From a virus: a DNA stretch of 36,047 bases. Positions 4,014 to 36,047 of this stretch are shown in pieces. Numbering within the stretch: the stretch's first letter is position 1; every line of letters begins with the position of its first letter. The position numbers were made by a program, and so were the translations under genes. The stretch is from the IMG/VR virus record IMGVR_UViG_2811994897_000004. One strand, given 5' to 3'. Under the pieces are notes generated by a model that saw nothing but the letters and a program-made list of their open reading frames with translations, did no database searches and was not told the origin of the DNA.

Positions 4014-4073
4014 ATCTTACCAACTTGGACATTTTTTGTCCAGAATATAAAACGTTCTTAAGACTTTCTTAAA
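4014..4073 (-). promoter_or_regulatory. Early promoter with TTAAG direct repeat and a palindromic operator
   Basis: Minus strand: TTTAAGAAAGTCTTAAG (4057-4073), -35 TGGACA (4037-4042), 17-nt spacer, -10 TAAGAT (4014-4019). The perfect palindrome TGGACA-AAAAA-TGTCCA (4026-4042) overlaps the -35. Confidence 0.55.
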
Positions 4074-23864: not shown

Positions 23865-24148
23865 CAAGCACCGTCCTAAAACAAATGCCGCAATTATGTA
23901 CGCCCACTAATTTCGATGTTATCTTAATCAGCCATAGGGACTTCGTCTCTCAAACAGCTACCCAGAGATAGTGTGGTTTTTATAAACGTTATTTGCTGAT
24001 AGTATGTACGCCGCTATGGTGAGCTACACCAAGTTCGACTTTAGTACCGCAACCTTAATTGGCACCTTTATTTCTACCGGTAAGGAAACACCGTATGTCC
24101 CATGACAAACATACGGCGCGAAAGGAGGAAGTGGCACGATGTCCACTT
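23833..24148 (-). ncRNA. Candidate novel structured RNA (about 315 nt) between terL and portal
   Basis: No credible ORF. It has its own extended -10 and terminator. GC is about 40-50% by hand count, against about 25% in the other intergenic regions. Hairpins lie at 24128-24149 (7 bp) and 24089-24118 (10 bp). The 10-nt direct repeat GGCGTACATA occurs twice. Confidence 0.45.
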
Positions 24149-24175: not shown

Positions 24176-25453
24176 TTACAACCCAATATCCTTAACCGCT
24201 TGTACACGTTCTTTATATGACATGTATGTTCCTTTCTTATTAGTAAAGATAACCGATTCCAACGCATAGCCAAGTGCCTGAATGATGTGGTCTGATCCGT
24301 CTTCTGGTCTGTTGGTTAGGTTGCCAAACTTATCCTTAGCATACACTTTTGTTTCCATTTCTTCAGCTAGCCAATGCACGCGGGGATGAATGTGATACTT
24401 AAACGACTTCATGAATTCATAACGTTGTACAAAGCTGTCTTTACCTTTTCCTGCTGGTTGGACATTCTTCAATCCACGGCTTCTTAATTCCCCAATCGTT
24501 CTTGGTTCAGCACTATCAGCATAGATTGTTCCCGATATACCGCCATGTCGATAAATAGCACGTGCAATGTTCTCGTTAAGCATCCCCGTCTCATAGAACC
24601 CATCGTACACATAGATGTCGTGGTCACTAACAATTGCCTGCACAAATGCTGTCGGATCGTGAGTGAAACCGAAGTCAATACCCATGACGTGACGACCAAC
24701 GATGGTCTTGTAATCAAAGTCTTCTATGTTGAACAACCCTTCAAACACTTGACCTTCTGATATCCCCCAGTCGCCAAACACAGCTACTCTAGCACGTGCG
24801 GGATTGCGTTCAATCATATTCTCTAGTGATTCAATATACTGTTCATCAAGATGTGAGTTATCTTTGTAAGTTGTCGTGATTGCCTTTGAATGTGGTCGCT
24901 TTGTCATCTCATCAAAGAACTCACCCTTAAGCCAATGCTTCTCACTCCATGGGTTGAATGCCAGTATCGTTTGATAATAACCACCTTTAGGCAACACACC
25001 ACGGATTGATTCTTCGACTGTGTTGAAGTCGTCTATGCGCTTAATCTCGTACGCTTCTTCATAAAAAACACGGCACAAGTTCCCAACGTCAGCTTTGATG
25101 GAAGTAATCTTTAGCGGATCATCTAAGCCACGAAAATATATCTTTTGTCCGGTTGGTTTGTACTTTATTTCTAACGGACTGACAGTGAATTTAAACAACT
25201 GATCTAATCCTAATTGATGAACAGCCCATCGTATATTTGAGAATGTACTATCCTTATGCGTTGTCTGAAACTGTCGCACGACAAGCCAATTAACGTATGG
25301 TTGCTTCATTATCGTCATAACAATACCAAACGCAATTCCGGCAGACTTACCTGAACCACGACCACCTTTGTAAACTAGATAACGTTCATGGCTTGTAAAC
25401 AAATCTTTATATGCGCTGCTCACCAGCTCTTTTTCATTTATCGTAATATTCAT
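24176..25453 (-). CDS. terL: Terminase large subunit (PBSX/Terminase_3-like)
   Basis: Walker A YKGGRGSGKSAG with a nuclease-domain C-terminus. The preferred start is ATG 25453 (MNITINEKELV...). The track start is a TTG at 25519 that would read through a terminator hairpin. Confidence 0.9.
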   Translation of the reverse strand: MNITINEKELVSSAYKDLFTSHERYLVYKGGRGSGKSAGIAFGIVMTIMKQPYVNWLVVRQFQTTHKDSTFSNIRWAVHQLGLDQLFKFTVSPLEIKYKPTGQKIYFRGLDDPLKITSIKADVGNLCRVFYEEAYEIKRIDDFNTVEESIRGVLPKGGYYQTILAFNPWSEKHWLKGEFFDEMTKRPHSKAITTTYKDNSHLDEQYIESLENMIERNPARARVAVFGDWGISEGQVFEGLFNIEDFDYKTIVGRHVMGIDFGFTHDPTAFVQAIVSDHDIYVYDGFYETGMLNENIARAIYRHGGISGTIYADSAEPRTIGELRSRGLKNVQPAGKGKDSFVQRYEFMKSFKYHIHPRVHWLAEEMETKVYAKDKFGNLTNRPEDGSDHIIQALGYALESVIFTNKKGTYMSYKERVQAVKDIGL

Positions 25454-25459
25454 AATTAA

Positions 25460-25468
25460 ATTATAGCA
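25460..25468 (-). promoter_or_regulatory. Extended -10 TGCTATAAT placed 6 nt before the terL ATG (would give a leaderless mRNA)
   Basis: Minus strand: GGCTTTTTATTATGCTATAATTTAATTATG. There is no SD in front of the ATG. Confidence 0.4.
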
Positions 25469-25497
25469 TAATAAAAAGCCATCCGGCAGGGGATGAC
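25468..25497 (-). terminator. Rho-independent terminator immediately upstream of terL
   Basis: GTCATCC(cctgcc)GGATGGC (7 bp including one G-U) followed by TTTTTATTAT. Confidence 0.6.
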
Positions 25498-25624
25498 CTT
25501 CTATTACATAGTTACTCAAAACATGCCTTATTTAATCGGATAGGCTTTGACATAAGCAAGCGTCAACCAATCAGAGTGCCATACACCTTTTCTACTTTGT
25601 GCATCAAGCCCACCGCTTGCCTAT
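25468..25624 (-). ncRNA. Structured about 155-nt leader or short RNA, from the TTAAG-type promoter to the terminator before terL
   Basis: A 10-bp long-range helix, TAGGCAAGCG (25614-25623) with CGCTTGCTTA (25553-25562). Competing ATAGGC/GCCTAT/ATAAGGC pairings. No ORF. Confidence 0.4.
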
Positions 25625-25630
25625 GAATCT

Positions 25631-25680
25631 ATAATATCATTTATGATTGGGGATGTATAGTAGCTTAACTATTTCTTAAC
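25631..25680 (-). promoter_or_regulatory. TTAAG-type promoter cassette
   Basis: GTTAAGAAATAGTTAAG (25664-25680), then 27 nt, then extended -10 TGATATTAT (25631-25639). Confidence 0.5.
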
Positions 25681-25753
25681 AATTGAAATTATCCTAATAA
25701 TCTTTAGGTTAAGAAACAGGTATAAATCGCTATCAATCAAAACCCATTTAACA

Positions 25754-25963
25754 TTAATATGGTTTTTCATTTAATGGTTTTTCATTTAATTCTTTTTCAA
25801 TATAAAACTTAGCACAATCAATCACAATTACTCCAATTGTCATTCCAGTCATCATTCCAATAATAAACCACGTTGACAAACTTGTGTCTTTAAGTATTAA
25901 AGCACATGCAATAATAATAACATCCATAATGATTGTGATAAACGTCATAGTAAAACTTCTCAT
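25754..25963 (-). CDS. Small 2-TM membrane protein inserted between terS and terL
   Basis: Preferred start is ATG 25963 (MRSFTMTFITIIMDVIIIACALIL...) behind GAGGA. The C-terminus carries a 15-bp tandem duplication (LNEKP twice). Confidence 0.6.
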   Translation of the reverse strand: MRSFTMTFITIIMDVIIIACALILKDTSLSTWFIIGMMTGMTIGVIVIDCAKFYIEKELNEKPLNEKPY

Positions 25964-25964
25964 A

Positions 25965-26462
25965 TTAATTATCCTCCCAAGGCTCAATCTTAATCGTCAC
26001 GTTCGTGTCACTGTCGCTCTCTGCTTGTCGCTCTGCTATCTTAGCGTCAGCGATTGCCTTGCGTAACTTCTGCATCTCAATACGGCTGGATGTTGTCTTC
26101 CCTACAATCTTAAGCAAGTCATTTGCAGCCTTGTTACTGTCTGATACGCTGTTGCGAACTTTAGTTACAGTGACATCGCCGTCTTTGCTTGACGTCACAA
26201 CATCTTCTGTCTCTTCACGTCTGAAAACCCGCGTTAAGCCTGCAAGTATCTCTTCTTGTGTAGCTATCTTGTTTTGATCCATCTTAGCCAACCGACGATC
26301 AATGTACAGCGCTACCTGTTCTTTCTTCAATAGCTCGCCGACACTCTTAGCAGAGTACGCTTCACTATATCCAGCAGCAATCGCCGACTTGTATGCGTTC
26401 CGAGTTTTGATATACTCATCGGCAAACTTTAATTGCTTATTTGTTATCCGATTCGTCCGCAT
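25965..26462 (-). CDS. terS: Terminase small subunit
   Basis: 165 aa. The N-terminal LKFADEYIKTRNAYKSAIAAGYSEAYSAKSVGELLKKEQV fits the Terminase_2 HTH region. Confidence 0.8.
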   Translation of the reverse strand: MRTNRITNKQLKFADEYIKTRNAYKSAIAAGYSEAYSAKSVGELLKKEQVALYIDRRLAKMDQNKIATQEEILAGLTRVFRREETEDVVTSSKDGDVTVTKVRNSVSDSNKAANDLLKIVGKTTSSRIEMQKLRKAIADAKIAERQAESDSDTNVTIKIEPWEDN

Positions 26463-26888: not shown

Positions 26889-26937
26889 ATTATAACAAAT
26901 AAAAAAGCGCTAATGTGCGCCTTAATACTTTCTTAAC
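26889..26937 (-). promoter_or_regulatory. TTAAG-type promoter cassette
   Basis: GTTAAGAAAGTATTAAG (26921-26937), then 26 nt, then extended -10 TGTTATAAT (26889-26897). Two further TTAAG pentamers lie in the 5' UTR (26877-26889). Confidence 0.5.
26901..26920 (-). terminator. Weak hairpin plus T6 between the operator and the -10
   Basis: GCGC(acatta)GCGC followed by TTTTTTATTT. The stem is only 4-5 bp. Confidence 0.3.
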
Positions 26938-33517: not shown

Positions 33518-33567
33518 ATGATAACAACTAGGTAAAACAATAACAAGTGTCTTAACATTTTCTTAAC
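33518..33567 (-). promoter_or_regulatory. TTAAG-type promoter cassette
   Basis: GTTAAGAAAATGTTAAG (33551-33567), 4 nt, -35 TTGTTA, 17 nt, extended -10 TGTTATCAT (33518-33526). Confidence 0.55.
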
Positions 33568-35683: not shown

Positions 35684-35733
35684 ATCATAATGCAAAGTAA
35701 AACAATAAACAATGTGCTTAATACTTTCTTAAC
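35684..35733 (-). promoter_or_regulatory. TTAAG-type promoter cassette
   Basis: GTTAAGAAAGTATTAAG (35717-35733), 4 nt, -35 TTGTTT, 17 nt, -10 TATGAT (35684-35689). Confidence 0.55.
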
Positions 35734-35735
35734 AT

Positions 35736-36047
35736 TTAAGAATTTAACTTTGCATTAAAGTTTATTTTGTGATTCAAAGCATCAATAATTTTATCATCAA
35801 TCGTACCGTTGACAATTAAGTAATCACGTGTCACTTTTTTCGTTTGATTGATACGATAGTTGCGATATTTTGATTGATCGAAGTCAGTGTATGAATAAGG
35901 CAAACTATACCAAATTGCATGTTGATATTCATTCAGTGTCAATCCAGCGCCACCTGCTTGTATTTGCACTAATAGCGCCCTTTTTTTATGATTAACATGT
36001 TTGCTACCATTAATCTCTCCAGCGTCTTTAAACACTGTTTTAAGCGC
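35736..36047 (-). CDS. SNF2/DEAH-type helicase, C-terminal part (continuous with 1-978 on the circle; whole gene 382 aa)
   Basis: ...ALLVQIQAGGAGLTLNEYQHAIWYSLPYSYTDFDQSKYRNYRINQTKKV... is a helicase-C motif V/VI region. The frame stays open to the window end and in phase with 1-978. Confidence 0.85.
   Translation of the reverse strand, partial: ALKTVFKDAGEINGSKHVNHKKRALLVQIQAGGAGLTLNEYQHAIWYSLPYSYTDFDQSKYRNYRINQTKKVTRDYLIVNGTIDDKIIDALNHKINFNAKLNS
35907..36047. repeat. Terminal overlap, identical to 1-141
   Basis: Direct comparison of both ends. Confidence 0.95.

Follow-up and report, generated by a model that had tools for sequence, protein, structure and literature searches.

A conserved terminator-promoter-AUG fusion predicts a leaderless large terminase gene in uncultured phages of lactic acid bacteria

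Introduction

In phage lambda, the cI gene transcribed from PRM gives a leaderless mRNA, and the late promoter PR', followed by the 6S RNA and the terminator tR', is controlled by Q antitermination. Lambdoid phages also carry morons, which are promoter-gene-terminator units inserted between late genes. Predicted leaderless promoters, one of them inside the structural operon, have been described in the Cluster O mycobacteriophages (PMC4351075). In bacteria, leaderless genes have an in silico signature, TANNNT approximately 12 bp ahead of the start codon (PMC3160421). In Lactococcus lactis, where the promoter consensus is tgnTAtAAT, about 13% of the mRNAs are leaderless and show an AUGaaaa motif (PMC4829306). 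Here we describe terL, the large terminase gene, in the IMG/VR virus record IMGVR_UViG_2811994897_000004, a stretch of 36,047 nucleotides that we call the window. The start codon of this terL has no Shine-Dalgarno (SD) sequence and stands directly behind an intrinsic terminator fused to an extended -10 promoter, P2. We give a probability of roughly 0.7 to the reading that the terL mRNA is leaderless, being transcribed from P2 with its first nucleotide at the A of the ATG, and that it is separate from a small-RNA unit lying upstream. An earlier inspection of the same DNA (the sequence-only reading) had proposed either this arrangement, with a short terminated RNA or an attenuator in front of a leaderless terL, or a start of terL at a TTG farther upstream. 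We consider each of these below.

Results

A predicted extended -10 promoter six nucleotides before the terL start codon

The T-run of the terminator passes straight into P2 (TGCTATAAT; see Table 1 for the coordinates of all features), a consensus extended -10 promoter (TATGCTATAAT). The hexamer TATAAT occupies 25465-25460, with its first T 12 nt upstream of the terL ATG. Since the hexamer ends 6 nt before the ATG, transcription is expected to start at the A of this codon. The absence of an SD sequence, which the sequence-only reading had remarked on, is borne out by the pairing energies. The best duplex of the terL start region with the anti-SD (the 16S 3' tail) is +1.5 kcal/mol, the weakest of all starts tested, while most genes fall between -6 and -12 kcal/mol; terL is the sole well-supported gene of this phage without SD pairing. 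The sequence around the ATG is rich in A and U (UAUAAUUUAAUUAUG). A comparison of the 5'-end folding energies of the gene starts does not single terL out. Judged by its sequence, terL has the features of the TA-led class of leaderless genes: a first T at -12, no SD, an AUG that encodes the N-terminus of the protein, and conservation beyond identity.

We collected the terS-terL regions of relatives (L001, L004, etc.) through exact-protein look-ups and pattern scans; blastn and megablast searches with the region found nothing meaningful among 50,697 phage records. Every relative with a TerL at least 69% identical to that of the window (69-81%) has TG-N-TATAAT followed by exactly 6 nt and an ATG. 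These sequences form about nine lineages: (i) the window, L004 and L005; (ii) L001; (iii) L006; (iv) L007; (v) L008 and L009; (vi) L010, L013 and L024; (vii) L021; (viii) the L014 group (L014, L015, L046, L061, L063, L071 and L072); (ix) L016. Six variants of the spacer are found across the lineages (TTAATT, TTAGTC, AACGTT, AACTTT, TTACTT and TTCAAT), and terL opens with AUGAA in eight of the nine. A constraint between a promoter and its start site would be expected to leave this picture, in which all but the -10 element and the interval to the AUG has turned over. The situation is different for TerL relatives that are at most 64% identical, which include all cultured ones (the Eupransor prophage L017, L019, the Weissella phages WC29P3 and WCP30, phiJL-1 and cIP1). 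In these genomes terS overlaps terL and there is no such promoter element, and the predicted leaderless design is therefore a derived trait of one uncultured clade. This conservation, together with the outlier status of terL among the gene starts of the phage, favors the first proposal of the sequence-only reading.

The same layout (T-rich sequence, TGnTATAAT, 6 nt and ATGAA) also precedes long open reading frames (ORFs; 300-811 amino acids) in unrelated phage contigs (L033-L070, various viral sequences). Predicted leaderless genes are thus not rare in A+T-rich phages.

We propose the following course of events. Host sigma-A RNA polymerase would start at P2 on the A of the terL ATG, and the resulting mRNA, with neither 5' untranslated region nor SD, would recruit a 70S ribosome to its 5'-terminal AUG, as in leaderless translation. 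Upstream, a second promoter, P1, would start at about A25624 and give a non-coding RNA of approximately 155 nt, whose first nucleotides would be held in a long stem and which would end at the terminator. The terminator would shield terL from upstream transcription and, since an internal AUG without an SD should be a poor start on any RNA that reads through, the output of TerL would be set mainly by P2. Leaderless translation may also hold TerL low relative to TerS.

Translation of terL from a longer transcript, read through from P1 or from a promoter farther upstream and perhaps processed, would require an internal AUG used independently of an SD, with TGCTATAAT conserved for some other reason or firing weakly. 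The A/U-rich context of the ATG is compatible with this, the efficiency of the terminator is a prediction, and in L006 a transcript from the upstream TGCTATAAT would enter terL without an intervening terminator. However, low-G+C Gram-positive bacteria depend strongly on the SD for internal starts, and most other genes of this phage use a clear one. In most lineages a hairpin and T-run lie directly upstream of P2. Moreover, the TG, the TATAAT and the 6-nt spacing are invariant while the neighboring bases vary, which fits a promoter constraint better than a loosely A/U-rich surrounding. We consider translation from a read-through RNA unlikely.

The start codon of terL

The automatic gene call places the start of terL at TTG 25519, giving a protein of 447 amino acids, and this form is found in a public protein collection (P0001). 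The sequence-only reading had raised the same start, from which translation would read through the hairpin. The frame is indeed open for 26 codons upstream, and the TTG is preceded, at a distance of 6 nt, by a weak AAGG. However, the close relatives of TerL are all 425-428 amino acids long, and among the 120 homologues listed a length of 447 amino acids is seen only for P0001. The tblastn alignments of the homologues begin at residues 1-3 of the ATG form, and the PHROG and Pfam matches start after residue 23 of the TTG-extended ORF. In L009, L013, L021 and L024 the upstream frame is shut after four codons by the in-frame TGA of TGATATAAT, which belongs to the -10 element, and L008 has no in-frame start codon upstream of the ATG. 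The next methionine of TerL lies beyond the Walker A motif. From the lengths of the homologues, the starts of their alignments and the closed upstream frames it follows that ATG 25453 is the start of terL. We therefore reject the TTG start, a hardly credible one, whose N-terminal extension (including MSNYVIEGHPLPDGFLLCYNLI) would have to come from terminator and promoter sequence. A practical consequence is that automatic annotation gives TerL 22 false N-terminal residues that derive from this sequence, an error which has already reached public protein collections (P0001).

Predicted terminator-promoter cassettes in the genome

In the terminator, the stem strand GGTCATCC (25498-25491) pairs with GGATGGCT (25484-25477) and is followed by TTTTTATTA. 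Flanking A/U pairs lengthen the hairpin to 25508, and the extended hairpin has a folding energy of -20.4 kcal/mol. With a G+C-rich hairpin directly before a U-run, and a structure kept in relatives, it has the form of a Rho-independent terminator. The sequence itself is not kept: in the relatives this position is filled by five unrelated hairpin sequences, each with a T-run leading into the TRTG motif. When genome contigs were scanned with the 23-mer of the terminator, the sole match was a terminator of an unrelated Chitinophagaceae sequence; we take its identical hairpin as chance.

Are such junctions peculiar to terL? Terminator-like sites are enriched in the window (11, compared with 4.0 +/- 2.2 expected), and so is TGNTATAAT (8, compared with 3.2 +/- 1.9 expected). 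Five copies of TGNTATAAT are on the minus (coding) strand, all of them between called ORFs, and four of these five lie 8-11 nt after a hairpin and T-run, before a 105-amino-acid gene, terS, terL and the portal gene. The recurrence of the cassette suggests that elements of the P2 type are the regular promoters of this phage. The terminator and TRTGnTATAAT cassettes of the 105-amino-acid gene, of terS (where the promoter element is again TGCTATAAT) and of the portal gene are each followed by a normal leader and an SD; the terL copy alone is not.

The close fit of hairpin, T-run and TRTGnTATAAT might also allow the polymerase to terminate and restart, that is, to release its RNA 8-12 nt before the -10 element, stay on the DNA and re-initiate immediately at P2. 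Recycling of this kind after termination has been observed in vitro with E. coli RNA polymerase (PMC6978380). If it took place here, terL would be coupled to the P1 unit at the level of transcription without continuity of the RNA, and it would be the restart that creates the 5'-terminal AUG. We regard this variant as rather unlikely.

A predicted exchangeable RNA unit between terS and terL

The gap between terS and terL is 511 bp long, from the end of terS at 25965 to the terL ATG at 25453-25451. The elements that the sequence-only reading had listed in it (the gap itself, the -10 of P1, a 10-bp helix, the terminator, and P2 ending 6 nt before the ATG) are all found at the positions it had assigned to them. 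The -10 hexamer of P1 (TATTAT, 25636-25631) is TG-extended, and its predicted start is the A at 25624. The TATACA and TGnTAT(A/T)(A/T)T elements of P1 are kept in position in the relatives, and the phased TTAAG repeat upstream of them (TTAAGAAATAGTTAAG) is conserved in L001, L006-L010, L013, L021 and L024. The window contains five exact minus-strand matches to the repeat, four of which lie 26-27 nt upstream of a -10 hexamer. Promoters of this type are found in front of replication genes too, so the repeat is a general promoter element of the phage and not a late-specific one, and it probably serves as a binding site for a regulator or as a UP-like element. A metagenome scan with the P1 motif returned one true relative (L021) and two unrelated matches.

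The RNA predicted between P1 and the terminator is well structured (z = -2.9 for the fold of the predicted 158-nt RNA; 1 of 200 shuffles folds as well). The helix strand ATAGGCAAGCG (25624-25614), which begins at the predicted +1, pairs with CGCTTGCTTAT (25562-25552). The 5'-terminal stem of 11-12 bp thus formed encloses a hairpin, and a second hairpin region (25550-25516) and then the terminator follow. We find no Rfam family for this RNA, either in the whole window at the gathering threshold or in 25300-26000 at E <= 10; the best match, a sub-threshold Phe_leader (E = 2.8), covers merely the terminator. ARAGORN finds no tRNA in the window, a search for antisense pairing of the RNA with the mRNAs of the phage itself yields nothing past chance matches of 10 nt, and a metagenome scan with an RNA-internal 21-mer gives no match. 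The likeness of GAUUAAAUAAGGC and GUUUUGAG to type II tracrRNAs or CRISPR repeats was considered and dropped, as there is no Rfam tracrRNA or CRISPR-DR match at E <= 10. Separately, a 15-nt segment of the RNA (25524-25510) is identical, on the same strand, to 35040-35026 in the exonuclease gene (E = 0.004), and a 14-mer of the RNA recurs at 12028-12015; both are possibly chance.

P1 is conserved in most relatives, as is the terminator before P2, and the sequence between them is not. The RNA of the window is carried by L004 (100% identity) and L001 (96%). In L005, TerL is 100% identical to that of the window, yet the slot holds a 38-amino-acid ORF with a strong SD. The L005 cargo (L005:1-296) consists of a tRNA-like 3' end, a GCCTATCCGATTAAATAAGGC hairpin and this ORF, after which the window sequence resumes at 25524. 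The pair is evidence of a recent exchange of cargo within one phage population. Other relatives have other contents. L006 and L007 carry a different stem-loop RNA motif (type B). Rfam-scored tRNAs are found in L007 (2307-2377; anticodon CUA, amber-reading) and in L010 (2291-2394; with a 50-nt insertion in the anticodon region), and L021 has a tRNA-like sequence at about 365-440; ARAGORN calls neither that of L010 nor that of L021. In L008 and L009 the slot is filled by two or three mini-units in tandem. In the L014 group there is neither cargo nor P1 unit, just 40 bp with the terminator, P2 and the ATG.

With P1 and the terminator kept while the cargo varies or is missing, the upstream RNA is best read as an autonomous, swappable small-RNA cassette. 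It has its own predicted promoter and terminator, lies between late genes and is variably present among relatives. We would thus class it as a moron-like cassette with RNA cargo, not as a leader, attenuator or riboswitch of terL.

The sequence-only reading had named an attenuator or riboswitch-like control as well. The P1 RNA could be a regulatory leader of terL, controlled by a Q-like antiterminator, as with lambda PR' and 6S-tR', or by attenuator or riboswitch switching. The geometry (a promoter whose short, folded RNA ends at a strong terminator before a packaging gene) fits this idea, the conserved phased TTAAG repeat suggests a regulator at P1, and three complementary strings are present as had been described (ATAGGC, 25624-25619; GCCTAT, 25545-25540; ATAAGGC, 25531-25525). 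However, the mutually exclusive pairing of these strings has no compensatory support, and at terL there is no conserved aptamer or leader with alternative pairings. Relatives have replaced the RNA between P1 and the terminator with unrelated sequences, those of the L014 type do without any P1 unit, and no Rfam riboswitch or leader matches. A read-through RNA would offer terL nothing better than an SD-less internal AUG. The occurrence of TTAAG-type promoters before replication genes, and of cassettes followed by their own promoter before the 105-amino-acid gene, terS and the portal gene, also argues against a control special to terL. No Q-like gene was recognized among the annotated ORFs, the annotation being incomplete. 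Control of terL through a leader is, in our view, very unlikely.

A different explanation for the conservation is that the module of approximately 230 bp (25684-25451) acts at the level of DNA, as a packaging (pac/cos) or recombination site. It sits between terS and terL, and it is 96% identical to its counterpart in L001, compared with 80-91% for the flanking genes. This identity to one relative also fits a recent exchange of the module, as L005, with its identical TerL and other cargo, illustrates. Relatives with closely similar TerL that lack the module or hold other cargo indicate that it is dispensable for packaging. Its parts agree with the consensus of promoters and terminators, and equivalents recur at other genes. 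A packaging or recombination site is an extremely improbable account of the module.

The type-B motif of the relatives is an undescribed RNA of approximately 70 nt (L006:1935-2000; L007:2218-2290; L025-L032). A 12-bp closing stem with four compensatory pairs surrounds its invariant core GUCGUUAAAUAUAAGCUGUACUUAUAGAUUAGUU, and the hairpin GACCGUUACACCGAACGGUC often comes next. In eight prophage-derived contigs it adjoins tRNA-like genes. No Rfam family matches it at E <= 0.1 in L006 or L007. We asked whether the RNA of the window is a member: the covariance model R1 (built on alignment A3), run over the whole window with filters off, gave no match at 25550-25626, and its best match elsewhere in the window has E = 0.26. 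The RNA was therefore rejected as a type-B motif.

The phage and its relatives

The window is a near-complete, circularly permuted phage genome of approximately 36 kb with all genes on the minus strand. The two halves of one helicase gene (phrog_62) lie at 1-978 and 35736-36047, at opposite ends of the window, which is therefore a circular permutation of the complete genome. PHROG and Pfam annotation identifies genes for replication, tail and lysis in addition to a PBSX-type terminase and an SPP1-type portal. Among cultured relatives, the closest TerL proteins (approximately 62% identity) are those of Weissella phages; the closest named prophages come from Eupransor, Fructobacillus and Convivina. 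This is an uncultured phage of lactic acid bacteria, whose nearest relatives infect the Leuconostoc-Weissella group of the Lactobacillaceae.

The small hydrophobic ORF directly after terS has no match in PHROG or Pfam. It is missing from L001, and other relatives have different ORFs of 60 amino acids at that position. In L001, terL is broken by an insert of approximately 800 bp (L001:1899-2738) between the positions corresponding to 25134 and 25125; the insert contains a 163-amino-acid GIY-YIG ORF with a helix-turn-helix, and is probably a homing-endonuclease intron or marks a split gene.

The gap that separates terL from the portal gene contains a single CCTCCTTT, a sequence of the 16S 3' tail, at 24120-24128, immediately after a predicted promoter (TTGTAA, 17 nt, TATACT) that overlaps the terL stop codon. 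The same sequence occurs in the terL-portal gap of every clade member with data (L001, L004, L005, L007-L010 and L013-L015) and in none of the outgroup loci L017, L019 and L020. It is tempting to speculate that a small RNA from the terL-portal gap containing CCUCCUUU, which is clade-wide and not in the outgroup, might mask SD sites, with the SD-less terL escaping.

Table 1. Positions of the features of the terS-terL region and of the phased repeats in the window
Feature	Position	Strand	Description
terS	25965..26462	-	small terminase, 165 amino acids; phrog_51 E = 2e-28; Pfam Terminase_2 E = 5.5e-22
Small transmembrane ORF	25754..25963	-	69 amino acids, hydrophobic; directly after terS, GGAGG SD
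TTAAGAAATAGTTAAG	25664..25679	-	TTAAG-N6-TTAAG; phased direct repeat upstream of P1
Promoter P1	25631..25659	-	predicted; -35 TATACA at 25659-25654, 17-nt spacer, TGaTATTAT at 25639-25631 (promoter scan)
Predicted small RNA	25470..25624	-	about 155 nt, from the predicted P1 +1 to the terminator
Intrinsic terminator	25469..25498	-	8-bp G+C-rich stem, 6-nt loop, T-run
Promoter P2, TGCTATAAT	25460..25468	-	predicted; extended -10 with TATG '-16' motif, fused to the terminator T-run
Spacer and terL ATG	25451..25459	-	6-nt spacer TTAATT (25459-25454), then ATG with its A at the predicted +1 of P2
terL	24176..25453	-	PBSX-type large terminase, 425 amino acids; Pfam Terminase_3 and Terminase_3C; PHROG terL
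TTAAGAAA-N3-TTAAG phased repeats	35717-35732, 33551-33566, 26921-26936, 25664-25679, 4057-4072	-	upstream of five promoters

Discussion

Several points weigh against a leaderless terL started at P2. Promoter activity, the position of the start at the ATG and termination are all predicted from matches to consensus sequences and from conservation. P2 has no -35 element, and within the window alone TATAAT-N6-ATG is not found beyond chance (2, compared with 0.8 expected); we count the element as significant because it is conserved in relatives, not because of its frequency in the window. In L006 and L016 there is no strong hairpin directly before P2. L001 keeps the module up to the ATG and adds a GGAGG and a second ATG 13 nt downstream, which serves as its terL start, and the leaderless design is therefore not obligatory. 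L001 also breaks two pairs of the 5' stem of the small RNA without compensation, while one G-U pair becomes G-C. The part played by this RNA, which may be trans-acting or a processed small RNA, is a guess. Finally, a constitutive-looking sigma-A promoter before a late gene leaves the timing of terL expression unexplained.

If the leaderless reading holds, a whole uncultured clade has swapped the translational coupling of terS and terL for a terminator, an extended -10 promoter and a leaderless start. The gap thus opened has become an exchange site for small RNAs and tRNAs. If confirmed, the locus would be a compact natural model of how an essential late gene can be expressed without a leader in lactic acid bacteria, and of cassettes in which a terminator and a promoter are fused. 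The unit of 30 bp comprising terminator, promoter and ATG could also serve as a genetic part for lactic-acid-bacterial hosts. Since leaderless mRNAs are common in Lactobacillales, a specialist may find the arrangement neat rather than startling. Our search of the literature found no report of a leaderless terL.

How does the locus compare with known systems? The bacterial TA-led genes (PMC4829306; PMC3160421) share with terL the first T at -12, the absence of an SD, an AUG start, the A-rich AUGAA and the tgnTATAAT element. They differ in that terL is a phage large terminase gene, normally coupled to terS as in all cultured relatives; that its promoter abuts an intrinsic terminator; and that its +1 is predicted from sequence. 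As in lambda cI and the Cluster O phages, the terL promoter is placed so that its predicted +1 falls on the first base of the start codon. Those examples concern a repressor or early genes, or else Actinobacteria, where leaderless mRNAs are very common, whereas here the gene is terL.

The small-RNA unit is close to the lambdoid morons in having an autonomous promoter and terminator, in lying between two late genes and in varying in content or presence among close relatives. Unlike a moron, it has a non-coding RNA as cargo (tRNAs or other RNAs in relatives) instead of a protein gene, and the gene downstream has gained a promoter of its own. It resembles lambda PR'-6S-tR' in that a short terminated RNA would come from a promoter just upstream of packaging or late genes. 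In contrast to lambda, its cargo is unconserved, neither a Q nor a qut equivalent was identified, a promoter stands behind the terminator in place of read-through, and cassettes like it are found before several genes. None of the elements is new in kind: leaderless genes, intrinsic terminators, extended -10 promoters and morons are all known. The conserved terminator-promoter-AUG fusion at terL is a new example, and one of practical weight for annotation.

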